Counted from the first letter of the stretch, positions 51,121-64,000 are shown. The stretch is DNA of 64,000 nucleotides from Candidatus Latescibacterota bacterium (GCA_965204745.1 OZ242010.1:3168001-3232000); one strand, 5' to 3'. Made by a program: numbers and translations. Notes: generated by a model from the letters alone, not told the origin.

Positions 51121-52776
51121 ATGAAATACCGAATCGTCTTTTTACTATTAGGTGTGTTCTTTTCCACCTGTGACGCGATGGCGCGAGACACGTTGCGCTT
51201 TGGGCGCGTGCGCCAGGGCCATACCGCGCTCGACACGCTCCGCATCCCAAACATAGACGTGACCGCACTGATGATTTCCAACCCGCGCGTTTCCAACCCC
51301 GCGTTTTTGCCCGCCGCGCCGTTGCCGTCCACCCCATTGACGGGGACGCCGGCCACGCCCTTGACCGGCGTGACGATTGAACCCAATGGCGAGGGATTTC
51401 TGCCGATTTCATTTATCCCCAACGCACTCGACACCTTCATCGCCAAGCTGATAATGGATACAAACCGAGGCATCCGCAACTGGGTGCTCTCCGGCGAAGG
51501 CGTGGAAGAGGTCGTCGTGATCAACGAAATCCTCGCGGACCCGCCGTCGGATGCGGGCGATGCCAACCGCGACGGAGGTCGGGATAGCAATGAGGATGAG
51601 TTTGTGGAAATCCTAAACACCGGCTTGAGGCCGATCAATATCGGCGGGTGGCAATTGTCAGACCGCAACTCACGCGGGCCATTCGCTTTTCCCGATACCA
51701 CTTGGATCGGGCCGGGAGAATACATCGTCCTCTTTGGCGGCGGAACGCCAACGGGCTTCACAGGTCAGGTTTTCGTGGATGATGGCAAAATCGGTGGAGG
51801 ATTGACCAATTCGAGAGATACAATATTTCTGATCAACCCGGCTTCAAACGATACGCTTGCAAGCGCGGGATGGGGCCGTGAGGGGGGCAACGATCAATCC
51901 CTCGTGCGGTATCCCGAAGGCATCGGCGAGTGGGTATTGCACACGGAATTACCGGGCACGGGCGAGAAGTTTTCGCCGGGCAGGGCCAGAGCATTGCGCG
52001 TTCAGCGACGGGGCGATCTCAATGGCGATGAGAAAATTGACCTGATAGACGCGGTGCGGCTGGTTCACATCATTCTCGGCGTCCCGCCCGCGAGCACGGC
52101 ACTCGAAAGATGGGCCGCGGATGTGAACGAAAGCGGCGGTCTCGACATCCGCGACCTGATCGCCCTGATTGCCCGATTTACGGGCCTGAGTTCTTCATCG
52201 GGCAAAGTAGCTGTCGCGCCGCTCGAAGGCTGGTGGTGGGAGGCCGATGGGCAAGTTTGGATGCAAACCAACCGGCCCGTGCATGTCGTGGTGGGCAAAC
52301 TGGCGGGCGAAAACGCGCATTTCGACGCGCGGTCCGAATGGATAGCCGCCGTGGCCGAACGGGATTTTGTGCTCGGTAGCGCGAATCGCAACGGCTTTGG
52401 GGACGCGCCCAATCCCTTGGGCAATATCCGCGGCGAGATCGCGTATTTGGAAGTCTATACGCTCTCGGGCGTCTCGGCGCGCTTGTCGCCCAAACCGAAA
52501 ACCTCCGGGATTCGGTCCAGTTTTCCCAACCCCTTCAATCCGGATACGGTCATCGAATACGAAATCGCACACCGCACCCGAATCACCCTGAGCATCTTCA
52601 CCCCCACGGGCCAAGAAATCGCGCGCTTAGTCGATCAAGTCGCGTTCCCCGGGCAATACCGCAAGGTCTGGAATGGCCGCGACGCCAAAGGGCGGCCCGT
52701 CGCCTCGGGCGTCTATATCGCGCGGTTGAGCGGTGCGAATTTTCACGCAACCCGAAAACTGGTTCTCCTAAAATGA
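51121..52776 (+). CDS. Secreted protein: Ig-like + lamin tail domain + dockerin + FlgD/CTD-like tail
   Basis: Signal peptide; VINEILADP..GDANRDG..EDEFVEI (LTD); GDLNGDEKIDLID / ADVNESGGLDIRD (dockerin); FPNPFNP..WNGRD..VASGVY. Confidence 0.85.
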   Translation: MKYRIVFLLLGVFFSTCDAMARDTLRFGRVRQGHTALDTLRIPNIDVTALMISNPRVSNPAFLPAAPLPSTPLTGTPATPLTGVTIEPNGEGFLPISFIPNALDTFIAKLIMDTNRGIRNWVLSGEGVEEVVVINEILADPPSDAGDANRDGGRDSNEDEFVEILNTGLRPINIGGWQLSDRNSRGPFAFPDTTWIGPGEYIVLFGGGTPTGFTGQVFVDDGKIGGGLTNSRDTIFLINPASNDTLASAGWGREGGNDQSLVRYPEGIGEWVLHTELPGTGEKFSPGRARALRVQRRGDLNGDEKIDLIDAVRLVHIILGVPPASTALERWAADVNESGGLDIRDLIALIARFTGLSSSSGKVAVAPLEGWWWEADGQVWMQTNRPVHVVVGKLAGENAHFDARSEWIAAVAERDFVLGSANRNGFGDAPNPLGNIRGEIAYLEVYTLSGVSARLSPKPKTSGIRSSFPNPFNPDTVIEYEIAHRTRITLSIFTPTGQEIARLVDQVAFPGQYRKVWNGRDAKGRPVASGVYIARLSGANFHATRKLVLLK

Positions 52777-55700
52777 AATACGTCTCGGTGGTGATCACAT
52801 TGTTTTGCGCGAGCCATCTCGTTGCGGCAGAGACGCGGCTGACCCTTGCCGAGACCGTCGGCGCGCCGGGGGATACCGTGGCCGTGCCCATTGTCCTGTC
52901 GAACACGCAGGCCATTTCCGGCATCAGCTTCTCCCTCGAATACGCCCCATCGGCGATCTCGTTCCTGCGAATCGAACAAACCGACATTGCCCTGACGCCT
53001 TTCGTGCGCGAAAACGCGCCCCAGATCCACTTCGTTTTTTTGGATACAATATCCGCCCAAGTGCTGGCAACAGGGGAACATGAACTGGGTCACTTAATGT
53101 TTGCCATCAAGGAAAACGCGGCCGTCGGCAAGGCCGCGCTGACGCTCAGCAACTTGGATTTGACAGACGAAAACCTTCCCCCCGAGCGCGTGCAGGGCAT
53201 TGCAGAATCCGCCGGCATTTGGATTACGACAAACGGGCTTCGGCTGGGCACTGCGGAGTGGGTATCCCAAAAAAAGGTCAAAGTGGATTTGAACCTCGTA
53301 ACCGACACCCCGATTTCAGGCATCCAATTCTCGCTGCTATGGCACGCGACCACGCTGGCGTATGACACCACATCCACAACCACATCTTGGCGGGTTTTCA
53401 GCCATGAACCCGATGAGCGCAGCGTGCGACTTGTCGCCGCGGATTTCACAGGCGAGCGAGCGTTCAGCAGCGATACCGCGCCCGTGGTTTCCGTGCATTT
53501 TCGCTCTCTCCCGAATCAAAACGATCCGCAGATTCTCGGGCTCGAACTCGGCGATGTGCTGATGACGGATCGCGCTGGCGAAAGCGTGCCCGTTCTCTCG
53601 AGCAATGGCGAGATCGACACGGCCCTGCGCCCTGCGCGTCCAGCGGTTTCTTTTGACGACTTGCACATCGAAGAAATCCTCTCTGACCCCGCGTCGAGCG
53701 AACAGGGCGACGCCAACCGCGACGGCACGCGCCATAGCCGAGAGGACGAATTTATCGAACTGGTCAATCGCGGCGATCAACCCATTGACCTCTCCTGCTT
53801 TTTGCTCTCGGACGACGATGTGTCCCCCGACAAAATGTTTGAATTTCCCGACAGCACAATCATCGCGCCCGGAGAACGCATCGTCCTATTCGGCGGCGGT
53901 CAACCGCAAGGCATTCCCGGGCAGGTCTATACAGACGATGGTAGCATTGGCAATGGCCTGACCAACTCGGGCGACATCATCGTGCTCATCGATCCAGCGT
54001 CGAGAGACACGCTACTCATCGTCGCGTTTGAATCGAATGCGAAAGATCAATCCCTCGTTCAACAGGACGGAACATGGGTCGGTCACAGCACCTTATACAC
54101 CGGGCGTTTTTCTCCGGGCGCGGCGTCACAACCGATTGATACATCTGATAATGATGAGTCAGATGAGAACGCGGATGAAAACGCAGGCGATGAACCAACG
54201 GATGAACCAACGGATGAACCAACGGATGAACCAACGGATGAACCAACGGATGGCAACGCGAATGGGAACCCGGGCGATCAACCAACCGATGCGAAAACGA
54301 ATCGGGATATCCGAGGATTGCACATCGAAGAAATTCACGCTGATCCCGCGTCGAGCGAACAGGGCGATGCCAACCGCGACGGCACGCGCCACAGCCGAGA
54401 GGACGAATTTATCGAACTGGTCAATCGCGGCGATCAACCCATTGACCTCTCCGGCTATCTGCTCTCGGACGACGATGTGGCCCTCGACAAAATGTTTGAA
54501 TTTCCCGACAGCACCATGATCGCGCCCGGAGAACGCATCGTCCTATTTGGCGGGGGTCAACCGCAGGGCATTCCCGGGCAGGTCTATACAGACGATGGTA
54601 GCATAGGCAATGGGCTGACCAATTCGGGCGATGTCATCGTGCTCATCAACCCGGCGACGAGGGACACGCTGCTCAGCGTCGCGTATCAATCCAAAGCAAA
54701 AGATCAATCCCTCGTTCAACAGGACGGAGCGTGGATCGGTCACAGCACCTTATACACCGGGCGTTTCTCCCCGGGCGCGGCGTCTCAACCGATTGATACA
54801 TCGGATAGTGACAGCGATGAATCAACCGATACGAGTGGCGAAGCAACCGATGAGAAAACGAGCGTAAATATCCAAGGGTTACACATCGAAGAAATCCACG
54901 CGGCCCCTGCGTCGAGCGAACAAGGCGATGCAAATGGCGATGGGGTGCGCCACGGTCAAGAAGATGAATTTATCGAACTGGTCAATCGCGGCGATCAACC
55001 CATTGACCTCTCCGGCTATCTGCTCTCGGACGACGATGTCGCGCTCAATGACATGTTCAGATTTCCCGATAGCACCACAATCGCGCCCGGAGAACGCATC
55101 GTCCTATTCGGCGGCGGTCAACCGCAGGGCATTCCCGGACAGGTCTATACAGACGATGGTTGCATAGGCAACTGCTTGATCAACGCGGGCGACGTCATTG
55201 TGCTCATCGATCCAACTGCGGGTGATACTTTGCTCGCTGTCGCGTTTGAATCGAATGCGAAAGATCAATCCCTCGTTCAGATGGACGGAGCGTGGGTCGG
55301 CCACAGCACCTTATACACCGGGCGTTTCTCCCCGGGCGCGGCGTCTCAACCGATTGATACATCGGATAATGGCGAGTCAGATGAAAACGCGGATGAAAAC
55401 GCAGGCGATGAACCAACGGATGGCAACGCGAATGAGAACCCGGGCGATCAACCAACCGATGCGAAAACGAATCGGGATATCCGAGGATTGCACATCGCAG
55501 AAATCCACGCGGACCCCGCGTCGAGCGAACAAGGCGATGCAAATGGCGATGGGGTGCGCCACGGTCAAGAAGATGAATTTATCGAACTGGTCAATCGCGG
55601 CGATCAACCCATTGACCTCTCCGGCTATCTGCTCTCGGATGACGATGTGGCCCTCGACAAAATGTTTGAATTTCCCGACAGCACAATTATCGCGCCGGGA

Positions 55701-58526
55701 GAACGCATCGTCCTATTTGGCGGGGGTCAACCGCAGGGCATTCCCGGGCAGGTCTATACGGACGATGGCAGCATTGGCAATGGCCTGACAAACTCGGGTG
55801 ATGTCATTGTGCTCATCAACCCAGCGACAGGGGACACGCTACTCAGCGTGGAATATCAATCCAATGCAACCGATCAATCCCTCGTTCAACAGGACGGAGC
55901 GTGGGTCGGTCACAGCACCTTATACACCGGGCGTTTCTCCCCGGGCGCGGCGTCTCAACCGATTGATACATCTGATAATGGCGAGTCAGATGAAAACGCG
56001 GATGAAAACGCAGGCGATGAACCAACGGATGGCAACGCGAATGGGAACCCGGGCGAGCAACCCACCGATGCGAAAACGAATCGGGATATCCGAGGATTGC
56101 ACATTGCAGAAATCCACGCGGACCCTGCGTCGAGCGAACAGGGCGATGCAAATGGCGACGGCACGCGCCACAGCCGAGAGGACGAATTTATCGAACTGGT
56201 CAATCGCGGTGATCAACCGATTGACCTCTCCGGCTATCTGCTCTCAGATGACGATGTCGCGCTCGACAAAATGTTTGAATTTCCCGGTGGCACCACAATC
56301 GCGCCGGGAGAACGCATCGTCCTATTTGGCGGCGGTCAACCGCAGGGCATTCCCGGGCAGGTCTATACAGACGACGGTAGCATAGGCAATGGGCTGACCA
56401 ACTCGGGCGATGTCATTGTGCTCATCAATCCAGCGACGAGGGACACGCTACTCATCGTCGCGTATCAATCCAAAGCAAAAGATCAATCCCTCGTTCAGAT
56501 AGACAGAGCGTGGGTCGGTCACAGCACCTTATACACCGGGCGTTTTTCACCGGGCACGGCGTCACAACCGATTGATACATCTGATAGTGACAGCGATGAA
56601 GCAACCGATACGAGTGGCGAATCAACCGATGAGAAAACGAGCGTAAATATCCAAGGGTTACACATCGAAGAAATCCACGCGGCCCCTGCGTCGAGCGAAC
56701 AAGGCGATGCAAATGGCGATGGGGTGCGCCACGGTCAAGAAGACGAATTTATCGAACTGGTCAATCGCGGCGATCAACCGATTGACCTCTCCGGCTATCT
56801 GCTCTCAGATGACGATGTCGCGCTCAATGACATGTTCAGATTTCCCGATAGCACCACAATCGCGCCGGGAGAACGCATCGTCCTATTCGGCGGTGGTCAA
56901 CCGCAGGGCATTCCCGGACAGGTCTATACAGACGATGGTTGCATAGGCAACTGCTTGATCAACTCGGGCGACGTCATTGTGCTCATCGATCCAACTGCGG
57001 GTGATACTTTGCTCGCTGTCGCGTTTGAATCGAATGCGAAAGATCAATCCCTCGTTCAACAGGACGGAGCGTGGGTCGGTCACAGCACCTTATACACCGG
57101 ACTTTTCTCCCCGGGCGCGGCGTCTCAACCGATTGATACATCTGATAATGGCGAGTCAGATGAAAACGCAGGCGATGAACCAACGGATGGGAACAGTGGC
57201 GACGGATCAACCGATACCGGCGACGGATCAACCGATGATCCAGAAAATGTGGTTTCTACGCCTGATTCAACAGCGAGCGAACCCACTGAACCGGCGAATA
57301 GCCCACCGCGCTTTTTGTCCGTGGCGGATACCCTCGCACTGGTGGGATTGGCTTTTCAATACGCGCCGCGCGTTCACGACCCGGATGGGGATGCGCTCGA
57401 GTTGCGCGTGCATCAACCGCTCGCGTGGTTGCGCTGGGATGGCGAGCGGCTGGTCGGGTTGCCCGCAGAGCGCGACACGGGCCGCGTCCGCGTGGTGCTC
57501 TGGGTGAGCGATAGCCGCGATTCGGTCTCGCATTCGGTATCCGTGCGCGTCCTCTCGCTTCGCGCCCAACTCGACGCCATCGGCCCCATCTACCAATCCA
57601 TGACATGGCGGCATCAAATCGACATACCCCCCGGCGTTCAAGTCCAAGTTGATGGCGGCCCGGAATGGCACGACCGCAGTCTAATTTGGAAGCCGCAAAG
57701 AGTCGGAACACATCCCGCGACCATCGCACTCAGCACCGAGCACGGCGACGAACTCTTTTTTACCATGTCCATTGCTGTCTGGCCCAAACCCGCCTTAAAA
57801 TTGCACTCGGTCCTCGTTGAACCCCAGCGCGACGTCAACGGCGATGGCAGGGTTGACGCATTGGAAGATCAATACGTCACAATCGAAAATTTTGGCACTA
57901 TGCCCATCGACATATCCGGTTGGCTACTCGGGGATGACGACGGTGCTTTGACGCGCTTGCCAGCCGGCACAGTGTTGGCCGCGGCGGATCGGCTCGTGCT
58001 GGTCGGCAACATTCAACCCGTGCCCACAGAGCGCGTCTTCTCTGCCGGCGGGCGCATCGGGAATGGCTTGGCAAAATCCGACCGCATCCTCCTCATCGCG
58101 CCCGTGGGGCCAGACACCTTGATCAACATGCGTTATACGAGCAACACCCCGGGACAACCGATTGTCTTTCAAGACGGGCAAAGCGTTGACACGCCTCCGG
58201 CCGATGATCCCGAATCCCGCGAGGACGAGGCAGACGATACGCGCCAAACAGATCGCAAACGGGTCATCCATCCATCTCCCAATCCATTCAATTCTGCGAC
58301 GCGCTTTGGTTTTTACACCGCAGGCGGCCCGGTTCACCTGACGGTGTACAATGTTCTTGGGCAGCCCGTCCGCCGATTAGTCCACCGCGATTTGCCCGCC
58401 GGCTATCATCAGCGAATATGGGATGGCACGAATGATTCCGGAATGGCCGTGAGTTCTGGGGTCTATCTGGTCTATCTGAAAGATCGGGAAGCGACATTGA
58501 TACAGCGAGTCGCGTTGTTGAGGTGA
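52773..58526 (+). CDS. Large secreted protein: two cohesin-like domains, six near-identical LTD repeats, Ig-like domain, divergent LTD, FlgD/CTD-like tail
   Basis: PGDTVAVPIVLSN..ISGISFSLEY and ISGIQFSL cohesin-like motifs; LHIEEI.ADP repeats at 53661, 54318, 54879, 55488, 56097, 56658; PNPFNS..WDG..VSSGVY; ATGA overlap. Confidence 0.87.
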   Translation: MKYVSVVITLFCASHLVAAETRLTLAETVGAPGDTVAVPIVLSNTQAISGISFSLEYAPSAISFLRIEQTDIALTPFVRENAPQIHFVFLDTISAQVLATGEHELGHLMFAIKENAAVGKAALTLSNLDLTDENLPPERVQGIAESAGIWITTNGLRLGTAEWVSQKKVKVDLNLVTDTPISGIQFSLLWHATTLAYDTTSTTTSWRVFSHEPDERSVRLVAADFTGERAFSSDTAPVVSVHFRSLPNQNDPQILGLELGDVLMTDRAGESVPVLSSNGEIDTALRPARPAVSFDDLHIEEILSDPASSEQGDANRDGTRHSREDEFIELVNRGDQPIDLSCFLLSDDDVSPDKMFEFPDSTIIAPGERIVLFGGGQPQGIPGQVYTDDGSIGNGLTNSGDIIVLIDPASRDTLLIVAFESNAKDQSLVQQDGTWVGHSTLYTGRFSPGAASQPIDTSDNDESDENADENAGDEPTDEPTDEPTDEPTDEPTDGNANGNPGDQPTDAKTNRDIRGLHIEEIHADPASSEQGDANRDGTRHSREDEFIELVNRGDQPIDLSGYLLSDDDVALDKMFEFPDSTMIAPGERIVLFGGGQPQGIPGQVYTDDGSIGNGLTNSGDVIVLINPATRDTLLSVAYQSKAKDQSLVQQDGAWIGHSTLYTGRFSPGAASQPIDTSDSDSDESTDTSGEATDEKTSVNIQGLHIEEIHAAPASSEQGDANGDGVRHGQEDEFIELVNRGDQPIDLSGYLLSDDDVALNDMFRFPDSTTIAPGERIVLFGGGQPQGIPGQVYTDDGCIGNCLINAGDVIVLIDPTAGDTLLAVAFESNAKDQSLVQMDGAWVGHSTLYTGRFSPGAASQPIDTSDNGESDENADENAGDEPTDGNANENPGDQPTDAKTNRDIRGLHIAEIHADPASSEQGDANGDGVRHGQEDEFIELVNRGDQPIDLSGYLLSDDDVALDKMFEFPDSTIIAPGERIVLFGGGQPQGIPGQVYTDDGSIGNGLTNSGDVIVLINPATGDTLLSVEYQSNATDQSLVQQDGAWVGHSTLYTGRFSPGAASQPIDTSDNGESDENADENAGDEPTDGNANGNPGEQPTDAKTNRDIRGLHIAEIHADPASSEQGDANGDGTRHSREDEFIELVNRGDQPIDLSGYLLSDDDVALDKMFEFPGGTTIAPGERIVLFGGGQPQGIPGQVYTDDGSIGNGLTNSGDVIVLINPATRDTLLIVAYQSKAKDQSLVQIDRAWVGHSTLYTGRFSPGTASQPIDTSDSDSDEATDTSGESTDEKTSVNIQGLHIEEIHAAPASSEQGDANGDGVRHGQEDEFIELVNRGDQPIDLSGYLLSDDDVALNDMFRFPDSTTIAPGERIVLFGGGQPQGIPGQVYTDDGCIGNCLINSGDVIVLIDPTAGDTLLAVAFESNAKDQSLVQQDGAWVGHSTLYTGLFSPGAASQPIDTSDNGESDENAGDEPTDGNSGDGSTDTGDGSTDDPENVVSTPDSTASEPTEPANSPPRFLSVADTLALVGLAFQYAPRVHDPDGDALELRVHQPLAWLRWDGERLVGLPAERDTGRVRVVLWVSDSRDSVSHSVSVRVLSLRAQLDAIGPIYQSMTWRHQIDIPPGVQVQVDGGPEWHDRSLIWKPQRVGTHPATIALSTEHGDELFFTMSIAVWPKPALKLHSVLVEPQRDVNGDGRVDALEDQYVTIENFGTMPIDISGWLLGDDDGALTRLPAGTVLAAADRLVLVGNIQPVPTERVFSAGGRIGNGLAKSDRILLIAPVGPDTLINMRYTSNTPGQPIVFQDGQSVDTPPADDPESREDEADDTRQTDRKRVIHPSPNPFNSATRFGFYTAGGPVHLTVYNVLGQPVRRLVHRDLPAGYHQRIWDGTNDSGMAVSSGVYLVYLKDREATLIQRVALLR
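53661..57150 (+). repeat. Six intragenic ~560-660 bp tandem repeats, with a 12-nt GATGAACCAACG x5 tract at ~54189-54250
   Basis: Direct reading of near-identical units. Confidence 0.92.
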
Positions 58527-58528
58527 AT

Positions 58529-58650
58529 AAGCGGTAAGAGGTGAGACGCAAGAAGCGGTAAGAGGTGAGACGCAAGAGGGAAGAAGGCCGACCAGCCGCC
58601 CAAAAGGTGAGACGTGAGATCGTAGGGGCGTGGCCCCTGTGCCCGCTTGA
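58529..58650. repeat. Purine-rich repeat (aagcggtaagaggtgagacgcaaga x2) and GTAG-led REP-like hairpin
   Basis: Direct reading; gtaggggcgtggcccct. Confidence 0.7.
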
Positions 58651-59213: not shown

Positions 59214-60293
59214 TAGGACTTACGCCAGGGTCATTGGTATCGCCGGTGTTTTGAGTTGTTGTCTCAAATAATCCTCCCATAAGCCATGTTTGACTTGATA
59301 GATGGTTTGTCCAGTCTGATAGGCGACTTGGGTCAGTCGTCCCCAAACGAGAAAGGCACACGCGATGTGGTTTCGCACAATGCGTGCCAATCGGCATTGA
59401 CACTTTTCAAGCCCCGTTACCTGTTTTGCTTCCCGGTGAACTTGCTCAATCTTCCAACGCAAGTGGCACACCGCTTGTGCCACTGACGGGTCGGTTTGAG
59501 TCAAGTCGTTGGTTACGATATACGCCGTGCGTCTCGTCGCAGACGCGACCCGGAATACGTTCACCTTGTGGTTTTTAGGGAACCCTCTGAGTTTCATGCG
59601 TTTTCCTGTGGCCTGTTCGCGTTTTGTCCAAGTTAAGGCATCGACCCGTTGATAGGGGTTTTCACCTGACGAATCGTCCACGAGGCGATTCTTTTTGATA
59701 GGACAGTAATAGGTCTTTTGCAAGTGCTCAATGTGAAGCATGACCGCTTTGGTGGCATACCAAGTATCCATCACCACTCGCTCAAAAGGCAGTTTTTTGT
59801 GATAGACCAAGAGTGACAACATCTCTTTGACGTGGTCTAACTTGGTTTTTCCATCCCCTTGCGGATCGTAAATGCGATAGTCAATCAGCCAAAACCGATC
59901 TTGAATCGGATTGACATACACACACGTCACCACACCGATCCCCGAGATGACCCCCTTCGCATTGCCACTGTATTGCCGACGCACGAGAGCCATCTTTTTG
60001 GCATAGCGCTTATCTAAGACCGTGTCATCAAAGAGAATTACGCCCTTTGCGGTCGACGTGAGGTGGGGTTTGACGTTTTTCCAGATCACACGCGGCGAGA
60101 CGCGATCCCCACCCAGATAGCGGTTGAGCATATCATGCGTGAACCGGTCGCTGTGATCTGCGAAATGAGTCAGGGTATAATTGAGCGGACTGCTAAGCAG
60201 ATACTGGCAGTAATCCAAGCGCGTTGGTTTCGCCATACAGACCTCCAAAGTGAGGATGGGGGTTCGATCCTGTTCTTTTTTGCGTAAGTCCTA
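59214..60293 (-). mobile_element. IS701-family insertion sequence, 1080 bp
   Basis: TIRs TAGGACTTACGC / GCGTAAGTCCTA; TTAAT direct repeat at 59209-59213 and 60294-60298. Confidence 0.9.
59220..60236 (-). CDS. IS701-family DDE transposase
   Basis: FDDTVLDK, RRQYSGN, MDTWY, RWKIEQVHRE.KQ.TG.E.CQ.R. Confidence 0.92.
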   Translation of the reverse strand: MAKPTRLDYCQYLLSSPLNYTLTHFADHSDRFTHDMLNRYLGGDRVSPRVIWKNVKPHLTSTAKGVILFDDTVLDKRYAKKMALVRRQYSGNAKGVISGIGVVTCVYVNPIQDRFWLIDYRIYDPQGDGKTKLDHVKEMLSLLVYHKKLPFERVVMDTWYATKAVMLHIEHLQKTYYCPIKKNRLVDDSSGENPYQRVDALTWTKREQATGKRMKLRGFPKNHKVNVFRVASATRRTAYIVTNDLTQTDPSVAQAVCHLRWKIEQVHREAKQVTGLEKCQCRLARIVRNHIACAFLVWGRLTQVAYQTGQTIYQVKHGLWEDYLRQQLKTPAIPMTLA

Positions 60294-60400
60294 TTAATGT
60301 GAATCGAATCTCGTTTCCCGTTAATTTTTCAAATTTAGCACTCGCTTCAAGTTCTCGTTGCAAGCCCTCTCCCCGCGGCCCCTGTGCGCGCCCGACCTAA

Positions 60401-60459
60401 AAAGCCCTCGCATAGCCTGGCCCCGAATCGATTCGTTCAGGGTCAGCATGCGAGGGCTT
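60401..60459. terminator. Long hairpin closing the Rpn array
   Basis: aagccctcgcat...atgcgagggctt inverted repeat ~20 nt after the last stop. Confidence 0.55.
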
Positions 60460-60479
60460 GTGTCGTTAAGGGAATCGCG

Positions 60480-60972
60480 TCAGGCCACCGCATCCAACAC
60501 GCGCTGAAATGCCTCCAGATCATCCGCTTGCACCGCTACACGATACAACCGCTTGAGCCTCGGCAAATTGTCGATGGTCGCAATGCGACCGGCGAACTGG
60601 CCGGCCACACCCGCATCAAAGCGAATCGCCAACGCTTCTCGGATGCTCTCTTGGATACCACGCCTAATGCCCTGCTCGATGCCCTGCTCGATGAACTGTT
60701 CCTCGAACTCTTCCTGGATCCGTTTCTTAAGATATTGGGTAAACAATGACTCACGCATAATCGCGTCCATAAAACCCTCCTGTGAAAGAATCTGCGCCAT
60801 CGATCCGCACGCGAATGAGGCTATCGGTCTGGCACGTTTCCACCTTGGGGAGTTCGGTGGCGAGGACTTCTTCAACTTCAATTTCGACATCCTCGCGTCC
60901 GAGTGCCAAGCGGATGAGGTCTTGCGGGTAGAGGTGAATCAACTGCTTGGGAATCGTATCGTATTCTGCCAT
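60480..60972 (-). pseudogene. Internally deleted Rpn/YhgA-like gene (copy E); intact C-terminal ORF 60480-60770
   Basis: MAEYD N-terminus frameshifts after RIDG; AGGAGG RBS and ATG of MDAIMRES retained. Confidence 0.85.
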
Positions 60973-60998
60973 GGGGCACCTCCTGACAGGGAATCGCG

Positions 60999-61467
60999 TT
61001 AGGCTTCCGCATCCAACACGCGCTGAAAGGCCGCCAGATCATCCGCTTGCACCGCTGCACGATGCAACCGCTTGAGCCTCGGCAAATCGTCGATAGCCGC
61101 AATGCGCGCGGTGAACTGACCGGCAACGACCACATCAAAGCGAATCGCCAACGCTTCTCGGATGCTCTCTTGGATGCCCTGCTTGATTCCCTGCTCAATG
61201 CCGCGCTCAATGCCGCGTTCCTCGAGGTACTGGATAAACGATGACTCACGCATAATCGCGTCCATAAAACCCTCCTGTGAAAGAATCCGCGCCATCGATC
61301 CGCACGCGAATCACGCTATCGGCCAGGCGCGTTTCCACCTTGGGGAGTTCGGTGTCGAGGACTTCTTCAACTTCAATTTCGACATCCTCGCGTCCGAGTG
61401 CCAAGCGGATGAGGTCTTGCGGGTAGAGGTGAATCAACTGCTTGGGAATCGTATCGTATTCTGCCAT
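60999..61467 (-). pseudogene. Internally deleted Rpn/YhgA-like gene (copy D); intact C-terminal ORF 60999-61265
   Basis: Same ~437-bp deletion junction as copy E; internal RBS+ATG retained. Confidence 0.85.
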
Positions 61468-61493
61468 GAGACGCCTCCTGACAGGGAATCGCG

Positions 61494-62663
61494 TTAGGCT
61501 TCCGCATTCAACACGCGCTGAAAGGCCGCCAGATCATCCGCTTGCACCGCTGCACGATGCAACCGCTTGAGCCTCGGCAAATCGTCGATGGTCGCAATGC
61601 GAGCGGCGAACTGACCGGCCATCCCCACATCAAAGCGAATCTCCAACACGTCGAGGATAGCGGCAATGGTATGTTCTCTACCCCCGCGCTCAATGCCCTG
61701 CTCGATGCCCTGCTCGATGCCCTGCTCGATGCCCTGCTCGATGCCCTGCTCGATTCCCTGCTCGATGCCCTGCTCAATGCCCTGCTCGATGCCCTGCTCG
61801 ATGCCCTGCTCGATGCCCTGCTCGATGCCCTGCTCGATGCCCTGCTCGATTCCCTGCTCGATTCCCTGCTCAATGCCGCGCTCGATTCCCTGCTCAATGC
61901 CGCGCTCAATGCCCTGCTCAATGCCCTGCTCAATGCCCTGCTCAATGCCCTGCTCAAGAAACTGTTCCTTGAACTGCTCCTCGAGGTACTGGGCAAACGA
62001 TGACTCACGCATAATCGCGTCCATAAAACCCTCCTGGGAAAAAATTCGGTTGATGGTGGCAGGATCATACGCCAACCCACTCAAGACCGCCAAGCTACCC
62101 AAATAATTCGCCTTGTCTGCCTCATCCAACGAAACCGAATCGCCCTTGCGAACACACGCACGCAACCAATCTTCGGAATCCATCCCCACAGGCGGCTTCA
62201 TCAATGGCGCGAAAGGAAGCAAGCCGGCCTGGTCACCTTCAAGAATGCCGCGGCCGTCCAGCTCGCTCAACCGAAGCACCTTGTAGCGCACCAGCACGGG
62301 AAAGTCCGCATGATCTTGGCGGAAAAATCCCTTATCGCTCCGCCCGGCATTGGGACGCAGATAGATGACAAAGGAATAGACCGGCAAGTCATACTGCTCG
62401 ATGAGACAGATGATATAGGAAGCCATGCGACGAGCCATATTCGCGCTATCCGAGGTTTGAAATTCGATGTGGATCAAGGCTTCCTCGCCATCGATCCGCA
62501 CGCGAAGGAGGCTATCGACCAGGCGCGTTTCCACCTTGGGGAGTTCGGTATCGAGGATTTCTTCAACTTCAATTTCGACATCCTCGCGTCCGAGTGCCAA
62601 GCGGATGAGGTCTTGCGGGTAGAGGTGCATCAACTGTTTGGGAATCGTATCGTATTCTGCCAT
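61494..62663 (-). CDS. Rpn-family (YhgA-like) PD-(D/E)xK nuclease, copy C, ~23 EQGI repeats
   Basis: RLVDSL..HIEFQ catalytic motif, MARRM..Y, LPFAPL, EQGI tract, IRF C-terminal domain. Confidence 0.9.
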
Positions 62664-62689
62664 GGGACGCCTCCTGACAGGGAATCGCG

Positions 62690-63643
62690 TTAGGCTTCCG
62701 CATCCAACACGCGCTGAAAGGCCGCCAGATCATCCACTTGCACCGCCGAGCGAAGCAACCGCTTGAGCCTCGGCAAATCGTCGATAGCCGCAATGTGACC
62801 GGCGAACTGACCGGCAACGGCCGGATTAAAGCGAATCTCCAACACGTCGAGGATGTCTTCAACCGCTCGTTCTCTGACTCCCTGCTCAATGCCCTGCTCA
62901 ATGCCCTGCTCAATGCCCTGCTCAATGCCCTGCTCAAGAAACTGTTCCTTGAATTGTTCCTTGAGGTATTGGGCAAACGATGACTCACGCATAATCGCGT
63001 CCATAAAACCCTCCTGGGAAAAAATTCGGTTGATGGTGGCAGGATCATACGCCAACCCACTCAAGACCGCCAAGCTGCCCAAATAATTCGCCTTGTCTGC
63101 CTGATCCAACGAAACCGAATCGCCCTTGCGAACACACGCACGCAACCAATCTTCGGAATCCATCCCCACAGGCGGCTTCATCAAGGGCGCGAAAGGAAGC
63201 AAGCCGGCCTGGTCGCCTTCAAGAATGCCGCGCCCGTCCAGCTCGCTCAACCGAATCACCTTGTAGCGCACCAGCACGGGGAAGTCCGCATGATCTTGGC
63301 GGAAAAATCCCTTATCGCTCCGCCCGGCATTGGGACGCAGATAGATGACAAAGGAATAGACCGGCAAGTCATACTGCTCGATGAGACGGATGATATAGGA
63401 AGCCATGCGACGAGCCATATTCGCGCTATCCGAGGTTTGAAATTCGATGTGGATCAAGGCTTCCTCGCCATCGATCCGCACGCGAATAAGGCTATCGACC
63501 AGGCGCGTTTCCACCTTGGGGAGTTCGGTATCGAGGATTTCTTCAACTTCAATTTCGACATCCTCGCGTCCGAGTGCCAAGCGGATGAGGTCTTGCGGGT
63601 AGAGGTGCATCAACTGCTTGGGAATCGTATCGTATTCTGCCAT
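62690..63643 (-). CDS. Rpn-family (YhgA-like) nuclease, copy B, 5 EQGI repeats
   Basis: Near-identical N-terminal domain to copy C; divergent C-terminus. Confidence 0.9.
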   Translation of the reverse strand: MAEYDTIPKQLMHLYPQDLIRLALGREDVEIEVEEILDTELPKVETRLVDSLIRVRIDGEEALIHIEFQTSDSANMARRMASYIIRLIEQYDLPVYSFVIYLRPNAGRSDKGFFRQDHADFPVLVRYKVIRLSELDGRGILEGDQAGLLPFAPLMKPPVGMDSEDWLRACVRKGDSVSLDQADKANYLGSLAVLSGLAYDPATINRIFSQEGFMDAIMRESSFAQYLKEQFKEQFLEQGIEQGIEQGIEQGIEQGVRERAVEDILDVLEIRFNPAVAGQFAGHIAAIDDLPRLKRLLRSAVQVDDLAAFQRVLDAEA

Positions 63644-63669
63644 GAGACGCCTCCTGACAGGGAATCGCG

Positions 63670-64000
63670 TTAGGCTTCCGCATCCAACACGCGCTGAAAG
63701 GCCGCCAGATCATCCGCTTGCACCGCTGCACGATGCAACCGCTTGAGCCTTGGCAAATCGTCGATGGTCGCAATGCGAGCGGCGAACTGACCGGCAACGA
63801 CCACATCAAAGCGAATCTCCAACGCTTCTCGGATGCTCTCTCGAATGCCTCGTTCAATGCCCTGCTCGATTCCCTGCTCGATTCCGCGCTCGATTCCCTG
63901 CTCGATTCCCTGCTCGATTCCCTGCTCGATTCCCTGCTCGATTCCCTGCTCGATTCCCTGCTCGATTCCCTGCTCGATTCCCTGCTCGATTCCCTGCTCA
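63670..64000 (-). CDS. Rpn-family gene copy A, 3' part only (runs off window), at least 13 EQGI repeats
   Basis: 12-nt gattccctgctc repeats, then IRESIREALEIRFDVVVAGQF...VLDAEA*. Confidence 0.85.
   Translation of the reverse strand, partial: EQGIEQGIEQGIEQGIEQGIEQGIEQGIEQGIEQGIERGIEQGIEQGIERGIRESIREALEIRFDVVVAGQFAARIATIDDLPRLKRLHRAAVQADDLAAFQRVLDAEA

Follow-up and report, generated by a model that had tools for sequence, protein, structure and literature searches.

Whether the last units of a toxin-antitoxin-like gene array, once they have lost the toxin, are discarded remnants or genes that still serve is the question raised by a locus in the genome of a Candidatus Latescibacterota bacterium (GCA_965204745.1). 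The stretch of DNA analysed, called the window here, is 64,000 nucleotides (nt) long (OZ242010.1:3168001-3232000), and the array, composed of genes distantly related to the Rpn (YhgA-like) nucleases, runs from its position 60480 to beyond its end. Passages of Zhong et al. (2023, PMC10400941) describe how, in Escherichia coli, small RpnS proteins made from internal starts neutralise Rpn, with an internal promoter present, and how four-residue repeats, starting 8-20 residues after the Met of the small protein, tune specificity, neutralisation occurring only at equal repeat number; the E. coli background given in an initial annotation of the window agrees with them. The answer reached here, which we hold to be fairly probable, is that the array is one transcription unit of five divergent Rpn-like toxin-antitoxin genes and that its two distal members are counterparts of the stand-alone rpnSs genes of E. 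coli.

The array consists of exactly five head-to-tail units, all on the minus strand, three of them full-length and two truncated.

63670 to beyond 64000, minus strand: unit A1, full-length Rpn-like gene, 365 amino acids (aa)
62690..63643, minus strand: unit A2, full-length RpnL-like gene, 317 aa
61494..62663, minus strand: unit A3, full-length gene, 389 aa, with an internal ATG at 62024 that would give a 176-aa RpnS-like product
60999-61467, minus strand: unit A4, truncated
60480-60972, minus strand: unit A5, truncated
63644..63669, 62664-62689, 61468-61493 and 60973-60998, minus strand: 26-nt inter-unit spacer, from stop to next ATG

The initial annotation had counted at least five such units joined by a near-identical spacer; its length is 26 nt at all four junctions. 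The spacer reads cgcgattccctgtcaggagg plus 6 nt in 4/4 cases and is made up of ~11 nt from the start of the family 3′ flank fused to ~15 nt from the end of the 5′ leader, including AGGAGG. Repeat families in the array are 77-94% identical over 238-300 nt, a repeat structure far beyond chance. The ATG of A1 lies 767 nt past the end of the window (position 3232767 of the genome, G000), and the visible part of this unit (63670..64000) comprises the EQGI/ERGI 12-nt repeat run and the conserved tail; 5′ of A1 come ~420 nt of non-coding DNA and then an unrelated YWTD-repeat gene. A2 has an N-terminal PD-(D/E)XK-like domain with D50, E67 and Q69, together with an internal Shine-Dalgarno sequence (63010-63015) and an internal ATG (63004) from which a 104-aa RpnS-like product would be read. 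The (E/R)QGI repeat run of A3 is the longest of the genome.

Alignment of the units with MAFFT yields a single 437-column gap with an identical junction in A4 and A5. The deletion takes out residues ~60 to ~205, the HIEFQ motif included, and, as 437 is no multiple of 3, the N-terminal remnant of each unit is a frameshifted 73-aa open reading frame (ORF). Break-point homology is at most 1-2 bp, and the flanking letters point to a parent unit of the type of another copy, c3657.

61246..61467, minus strand: N-terminal remnant of A4, 73-aa ORF, junction between 61290 and 61289
60999..61265, minus strand: A4s, stand-alone RpnS-like ORF, 88 aa, Shine-Dalgarno sequence 61271-61276
60751..60972, minus strand: N-terminal remnant of A5, 73-aa ORF, junction between 60795 and 60794, same deletion
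60480..60770, minus strand: A5s, stand-alone RpnS-like ORF, 96 aa, Shine-Dalgarno sequence 60776-60781

The A4 remnant holds 59 codons of the nuclease gene before the frame shifts, and its ORF ends 20 nt past the internal ATG; the A5 remnant differs from it at 6/177 nt, 5 of these differences being non-synonymous. The initial annotation had described a deletion of ~437 bp common to both distal copies, with loss of HIEFQ, a frameshifted N-terminus and intact but differing C-terminal ORFs of 88 and 96 aa. The single gap, the shared junction and the ORFs read from the internal ATG all bear this out, as they do the view that the distal units are nuclease-dead and yet keep the small ORF.

An AGGAGG-N5-ATG motif stands at each of the four internal ATGs picked out beforehand (63004, 62024, 61265 and 60770) and in 29/29 copies of the family in this genome. 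In the full-length genes compared (34, from this genome and nine loci of relatives), the Q-E-G codons that underlie the ribosome site are CAG GAG GGT in 34/34, whereas elsewhere in these genes, where Q, E or G is conserved, the shares are CAG 43%, GAG 48% and GGT 21%. For the Ser and Arg that immediately precede the ribosome site, 4-5 synonymous codons occur. Judged by these codons, the internal ribosome site is under nucleotide-level constraint, as expected of such a site. The proposal that the internal start is used is very probably right, given the ubiquity of the motif and the frozen synonymous positions.

The family was delimited with blastp, A2 being the query and all 75,825 six-frame ORFs of 40 aa or more the database. 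The genome has 24 full-length copies and one without ~45 N-terminal residues (59-100% identity), with 4 C-terminal-only ORFs and 2 stumps as further matches; a second array, of three units with the same spacer, lies at G000 4306758-4309977. All C-modules differ from one another (29/29). Each is built from a fixed head, consecutive 4-mers of the KEQF and (E/R)QGI types, a linker of one of three kinds and a conserved 48-residue tail. The (E/R)QGI and related 4-mers begin ~15-23 residues after the internal Met, the repeat runs reach ~25 units, and the spacing from head to tail is 14+4k residues in 29/29 modules. Variable four-residue repeats of the E. coli kind, as had been suggested for this locus, are thus a regular property of the family.

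The EQGI repeats (61596-62040 and 63760-64000) draw spurious NCBIfam FliH matches, at 2.8e-14 for A3 and down to 7.9e-13 among 35 homologs, and one ESM Atlas cluster of relatives has been auto-named 'Flagellar assembly protein H family'. Such false FliH calls are an annotation trap that is worth flagging.

The best hidden Markov model (HMM) match of the family is TIGR01784 (Rpn family; E = 5.3e-7, 29.7 bits). This match spans the nuclease motif, and the small ORFs match profile positions 210-254. PF04754 and PF12784 follow at E = 0.075 and E = 0.087. Among the homologs, 28/35 match TIGR01784 at E <= 0.01 and 10/35 match PF04754 at E <= 0.1, and D50, E67 and Q69 are invariant in all 35. By hhalign (E = 0.04) these three residues fall on D63, E82 and Q84 of E. 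coli RpnA, which we take to be its catalytic residues. The AlphaFold model of the long protein (mean predicted local distance difference test score, pLDDT, 80.8) has an alpha/beta N-domain, a helical region and a C-terminal helical bundle. In VIA-align, residues 4-133 match NucS (2vld_B; Z 6.8, root-mean-square deviation 2.9, 103 aligned residues) and residues 1-150 match AF1548 (Z 5.7), SdaI (Z 5.4) and BspD6I (Z 5.2), all of these, NucS included, lying under the Z 8 caution line. The Foldseek list for the long protein is enriched in restriction-type nucleases, all at E > 0.05. The nearest named ESM Atlas clusters are the Rpn family, DUF4351, DUF2887 and Transposase_31 (scores 0.96-0.97); neighbours include clusters with PF14261 in 10-97% of members, which is a lead only. 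A homolog search returned 1623 proteins at E <= 1e-5 among 7996 candidates scored; none of the 120 best homologs has a Pfam domain, and all are unnamed or called 'hypothetical protein'. PADLOC gave a single, repeat-driven match to a 'putative invertase' model. On these profiles and folds the genes are a distant, unannotated branch of the Rpn-like superfamily, and not a member by curated rules. The earlier assignment to Rpn/YhgA-like genes therefore holds as distant kinship, carried by the sub-threshold TIGR01784 match, the invariant D/E/Q and the PD-(D/E)XK-type fold matches.

The model of A4s (mean pLDDT 82.2) is a long helix followed by a small helical bundle. The homodimer model of A4s reaches 0.72, where the best of 3 controls has 0.01; the score mark applied is reached by 20/30 proteins solved as pairs and by 1/23 solved as single chains. 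Three runs had at least 94% of contacts in common, with a partner pLDDT of at least 84, and placed the interface at residues 11, 14-31, 33-34, 37-38, 41-42, 65, 68-69 and 72-73, mainly on the repeat helix. A4s is predicted to homodimerise along this repeat-bearing helix.

Several sites in and around the array bear on its transcription.

63044..63073, minus strand: TTGGCG-18-TATGAT, a promoter-like site within A2 that precedes the internal ATG by ~40 nt
62064-62093, minus strand: twin TTGGCG-18-TATGAT site inside A3
60397..60459, minus strand: terminator-like hairpin and UUUUU directly after A5 (folding window 60380-60482: -47.2 kcal/mol, z = -4.7)

A further promoter-like site, TTGACA-17-GATTAT, is located ~50 nt upstream of A1, and before A1 only; the inter-unit spacers contain no promoter-like or terminator-like site. 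Elsewhere in the genome the same hairpin element recurs after 8 further units or arrays. Read from these signals, the array would be one transcript, to which internal promoters may add. The ~55-nt hairpin element (GCACAAGCCCTCGCA ... TGCGAGGGCTTGTGC) is present in the 3′ flanks of 9 units (L002 1194-1248, 2605-2619), at copy c3314 also upstream of the gene, and could be either a small repeat element or a terminator duplicated together with the gene.

We infer toxicity, neutralisation, and the expression and target of A4s and A5s along the following lines. Each full-length copy would encode a long RpnL-like protein, with a PD-(D/E)XK nuclease domain and a C-terminal helical dimerisation module, and, from the conserved internal ribosome site, a short RpnS-like protein that is the C-module alone. 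By analogy with E. coli Rpn, the short protein would bind and silence the long one, and the number of (E/R)QGI repeats would set the length of the first helix and so keep copies from cross-silencing. The distal units would stem from one 437-bp deletion in a c3657-type unit, followed by tandem duplication and by segment exchange with paralogs. That deletion would have killed the nuclease and the internal promoter-like site and spared the internal ribosome site and the small ORF, leaving A4s and A5s to be read from the read-through transcript of the array.

Nuclease-less cassettes are not confined to this array. Two further ones in the same genome have independent junctions right at the ribosome site, and ribosome site, ATG and full-length ORF are all retained in 4/4 nuclease-less cassettes of the genome.

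G000:C1:3865574-3866709, minus strand: D1 and D2s (locus L052), a full-length copy and, 2 nt past its stop, a second ribosome site and a 79-aa RpnS-like ORF
G000:C1:732612-732947, minus strand: solitary cassette (locus L051), a 111-aa RpnS-like gene with no nuclease remnant, after a terminator-like hairpin

The junction letters of D1 and D2s recur in contigs of three other public runs. The solitary cassette is preceded by a TTGACA-17-TATTAT site with TG (11/12 matches), 16 nt separating the end of this site from the ATG.

Five related genomes were searched with the tail and with the N domain as queries, and the counts leave aside 4 partial tail matches as well as short head-only matches. Of their near-complete tail matches, 53/86 follow an N domain and 33/86 do not, and 27/33 of these nuclease-less cassettes are located >2.5 kb from any full-length unit. 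Twenty fetched loci contained 18 cassettes in which an ATG follows a GGAGG-like site and begins an uninterrupted ORF of 81-110 aa, and at least 3 other cassettes without a recognisable start. A two-cassette locus is syntenic in three species (G004, G014 and G017), the neighbouring full-length gene being absent in G017. Between G004 and G017 the ratio of non-synonymous to synonymous change (dN/dS) is 0.14 for cassette 1 (29.5 synonymous differences, Sd; 25.5 non-synonymous, Nd; P = 7e-8 vs neutrality) and 0.38 for cassette 2 (P = 0.006). This syntenic pair is under purifying selection. G018 has two loci in which a full-length gene is followed by a cassette that differs from it by one repeat and a few residues. 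Across 18 genomes of the genus, the 317-aa protein has 5 to 87 matches per genome; the 87 belong to G016 and include several multi-unit arrays, as compared with 5-33 in the other 17.

Conversely, five N-domain matches have no tail match. Three of them, from one lineage (L056 2720-3415, L057 and L058; genomes G014 and G015), end 17-21 residues beyond the internal Met; each has HYK[FS]Q for HxEFQ, so that the catalytic Glu is lost (E67K). The other two, L059 and L060 (G015 and G017), have an intact HHEFQ and an alternative 61-aa tail, identical in both species, that runs from the internal Met and is a second type of tail module. In none of the six genomes was an intact nuclease domain seen to lack a C-module. 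Such an asymmetry agrees with a toxin dependent on the product of its own tail, and is by itself no proof that the cassettes are useful.

A transposase gene and several repeats lie elsewhere in the window.

59220-60248, minus strand: DDE transposase gene, 342 aa (PF01609, E = 2.9e-9), ~230 nt beyond the hairpin of the array

Between this gene and the hairpin lies a stem-loop, GGTTCGATCC (60252-60277), that resembles a tRNA 3′ end; despite this T-arm-like fragment ARAGORN detected no tRNA beside the array. At 52773-58526 on the plus strand the window has a 1917-aa ORF of long near-identical internal repeats with a sorting-domain-like tail at its end, and two 24-nt direct repeats are found right at the stop of this ORF (58526-58573).

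Several results weigh against reading A4s and A5s as maintained inhibitors in an Rpn-like family. With regard to kinship, the family does not reach the TIGR01784 cut-off of 52.1 bits, Pfam returns nothing relevant for the long or the short proteins at E <= 0.01, and 0/22 small proteins match DUF4351 (PF14261) at E <= 1. The hhalign pairing with RpnA has a probability of just 1.3%, and the sequence profile search of the PDB returned a chance S17e match (E = 0.75) and not RpnA-S (7TH0). Fold searches with the small model gave generic helical proteins (Z <= 6.6), 7TH0 being absent among the matches listed by Foldseek and in the wide top 50 of VIA-align, and the dimer pass may be owed to likeness with solved helical dimers. 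With regard to the distal units, A4 and A5 are without the internal promoter-like site, which the deletion removed, and A5s departs from the rest of the family at several normally conserved positions (S9L, IDNL, LYR and DAVA). The evidence of constraint on A4s and A5s themselves is weak. The two differ by Sd 10 and Nd 12 in 71 codons (dN/dS about 0.35, P = 0.02 vs neutrality), and their N-terminal stumps by Sd 1 and Nd 5. Divergence in the C-part is threefold that in the stump (22/213 against 6/177 nt, P = 0.01), so some of it probably came in through exchange with other copies. Comparison of the four own-genome cassettes with their nearest full-length copies (dN/dS 0.12-1.07) was set aside because it mixes time before and after truncation, and none of the 30 relatives searched is closer than ~72% protein identity, too far for a comparison of orthologs of A4s and A5s. 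Finally, the bias towards keeping tails is also expected if truncations that leave the toxin alone are simply lethal.

Some of these points are what would be seen if the distal units were dead and merely wreckage, toxin-destroying deletions being tolerated and deletions that take the antitoxin from a live toxin being lethal, and a minority share of belief is due to this explanation. The lost internal promoter-like site, the A5s substitutions and the N remnants, which evolve as if neutral, speak for it, as does the comparison of A4s with its nearest full-length copies (dN/dS 0.40-1.07, on just 7-11 differences). An insertion sequence adjoins the array end, ORFs of 88-96 aa may long stay open by chance, and the sole tail-less nuclease lineage is catalytically mutated, as survivorship predicts. 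However, the synonymous excess between A4s and A5s speaks against wreckage, as does a truncated unit that was duplicated and kept twice. Wreckage is also at odds with the purifying selection on comparable cassettes in three species, with the near-consensus promoter-like site of one own-genome cassette and with the retention of ribosome site, ATG and full-length ORF in all four. That the nuclease-less units are instead a library of silent donors, giving the nuclease a new C-terminus and a new self-recognition as in polymorphic toxins or silent pilin cassettes, is decidedly unlikely, even though the C-modules are mosaic. In every unit examined, the nearest paralog changes from segment to segment of a module, often with 100% identity, which indicates that segments have been exchanged among the copies, orphans included. 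In A4s the linker is identical to that of B3 (30/30), the last 69 nt are identical to A1 and B2 (69/69) and the remnant is c3657-like; for the tail polymorphisms (P/Q with H/L) all four combinations occur within each of the two linker classes scored. The N domains of A1-A3, B1-B3, c3314 and c4700 are 94-97% identical to A2 (residues 1-258), the tails 73-87%, and homology is kept on both sides of a cassette, by the 59-codon remnant, by the ribosome site and head, and by the tail and spacer. Fusion of rpnSs with an rpn N-terminal region is described in passages of PMC10400941. Yet 25 paralogs can exchange among themselves and need no dedicated donors, the mosaics do not give the direction of exchange, and this genome has 4 cassettes to 25 nuclease-bearing copies. 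In relatives 27/33 cassettes are far from full-length units, and deletion-type recombination with a downstream cassette would also lose the units in between.

Barely credible is a third account, in which the array is an assembly artefact of dispersed paralogs or a set of side-by-side transposons of the insertion-sequence type. There are 25 dispersed paralogs with conserved flanks, and passages of PMC10400941 note that the family is often annotated as putative transposase. Over 60300-61600 the contigs of four other public runs are short-read unitigs of 50-155 nt, none of which bridges a unit under a rule of at least 31 nt on either side of a junction; the best across the A4 junction (61262-61319, no mismatches) has flanks of 28 and 30 nt and for that reason is not counted. 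Loose unitig ends at 61290 and 60791-60795 belong to contigs from full-length paralogs, whose sequence departs from that of the array at the deletion junction. Exact-pattern scans of metagenome_contigs and genome_contigs for the deletion junction (27 nt) and the spacer (23 nt) gave no match, and records of this genome may be outside those collections; the best-matching public DNA runs are sponge metagenomes, and no RNA run was among the 24 public runs listed. On the other hand, the window lies within a single 5.48-Mb contig, a second array of three units has the same spacer, and each array unit is distinct from all other copies and is therefore no product of read collapse or duplication. As for transposition, at the 3 loci examined (of 25) the gene is not consistently bracketed by any pair of terminal inverted repeats, and its conserved flanks consist of a leader resembling a promoter and a hairpin resembling a terminator, for which reasons an insertion sequence or autonomous transposon was rejected; rpn genes are likewise described, in passages of PMC10400941, as having neither inverted repeats nor target duplications.

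If the distal units are counterparts of stand-alone rpnSs genes, as favoured here, their target need not be the neighbouring nucleases. The helix from head to tail is 26 residues long in A4s and 34 in A5s, against 90, 42 and 114 in A1, A2 and A3. With lengths thus unmatched, and by the equal-repeat rule of E. coli, A4s and A5s would not neutralise their own array, and a role as its spare inhibitors is unlikely. Equal lengths are found in c1753 for A4s (26) and in c3722 and c2181 for A5s (34), and the linker type of A5s only in c2181. Candidate targets are c2181, in the case of A5s, some other copy, or an rpn gene arriving from outside.

These results extend the gene-within-gene design of RpnL/RpnS to a large protein family that is unnamed in current databases, the hosts of which are uncultured, apparently sponge-associated bacteria with a few to dozens of copies. 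They also offer comparative support, independent of the E. coli experiments, in that the internal start is under nucleotide-level selection, that stand-alone small genes are maintained by selection and that a nuclease without a tail is not tolerated. A bolder proposal is that the cassettes form a working reserve of C-termini, re-keying nuclease and inhibitor together, and that solitary promoter-bearing cassettes confer immunity against incoming rpn genes. We regard it as unlikely; if the re-keying were true, a genome with dozens of insulated Rpn-like defence modules would make new specificities on demand.

Among known systems, polymorphic toxin loci such as Rhs and CdiA have complete genes followed by orphan modules of toxin tip and immunity gene, and arrays of orphan immunity genes. 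The present locus shares with them complete genes followed by 5′-truncated, variable C-terminal copies, and homology that would allow recombination. It differs in that its orphans consist of the inhibitor part and lack any toxin. Delivery of the long protein to other cells is not known, so protection from the toxins of neighbours does not apply; Pfam showed no delivery domain in the 317-aa A2 protein, in searches not aimed at delivery domains. The description of the locus as a polymorphic-toxin-like array is therefore a loose analogy.

Results bear on two of the checks proposed with that description. For dN/dS of orphan ORFs in relatives, comparable cassettes were found to be constrained (0.14 and 0.38), with the evidence for A4s and A5s remaining weak; for RpnS-only cassettes after genes elsewhere, the two G018 loci are positive instances, and 27/33 cassettes are solitary. 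Nor is the layout as new as had been supposed. Passages of PMC10400941 describe up to 26 rpn copies per genome, arrays arising by tandem direct duplication, separate and expressed rpnSs genes downstream of rpnC and rpnE (the latter being ypaA), stand-alone DUF4351 genes, and loss of rpnSs by fusion with the rpn N-terminal region, and a commentary mentions second RpnS copies at some loci (PMC10400984). Among the papers listed by the literature search there was no relevant later work on RpnS, rpnSs or DUF4351 beyond that paper and its commentary, Fig. S1B and Dataset S1 of PMC10400941, which possibly show arrays ending in truncated units, being outside its scope; among the papers listed for recombination-promoting nuclease and sponge symbionts, none contained the former term.

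The closest relatives in design are RpnA-E and RpnP2 of E. coli, toxin-antitoxin systems that defend against phage, with a long form that is a toxic DNA endonuclease and a small form folded as a three-helix bundle (structure 7TH0). In both, a D...ExQ motif marks the N-terminal domain, which is of PD-(D/E)XK type, putatively so in the present case; the helical C-terminal module has an internal ribosome site and ATG through which it could be produced separately, and the gene contains a promoter-like site. Both have four-residue repeats (one hydrophobic residue with charged residues or Gly) that vary in number between copies, dimerisation along the long first helix, predicted in the present case, and many copies with arrays formed by tandem duplication. 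In contrast, the sequences here are very distant, with a sub-threshold HMM match and likeness to 7TH0 undetected; the repeat runs are much longer (to ~25 units), and 24-25 copies carry three interchangeable linker types. Toxicity and inhibition have been demonstrated in E. coli and are predictions in the present lineage.

For the truncated units the nearest parallel is the stand-alone rpnSs (ypaA, or rpnESs, after rpnE; rpnCSs after rpnC), likewise a second copy of the small gene placed downstream, derived from a paralog, and open to loss or to renewed fusion into genes; the layout of rpnE-ypaA is equal to that of the D1-D2s locus. The cassettes of the array differ from these genes in having arisen by internal deletion, with a 59-codon stump that has its own strong ribosome site, in having then been duplicated in tandem, and in helix lengths that match no upstream gene. 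They also differ from the stand-alone DUF4351 genes in giving 0/22 DUF4351 matches, and in relatives such cassettes make up 33/86 of tail modules and are mostly solitary. The locus is thus another instance of known RpnL/RpnS biology in a remote lineage and no new kind of system; its local particulars are the origin of the cassettes by an internal deletion that left a stump, the tandem duplication of a dead unit and the very long repeat runs.

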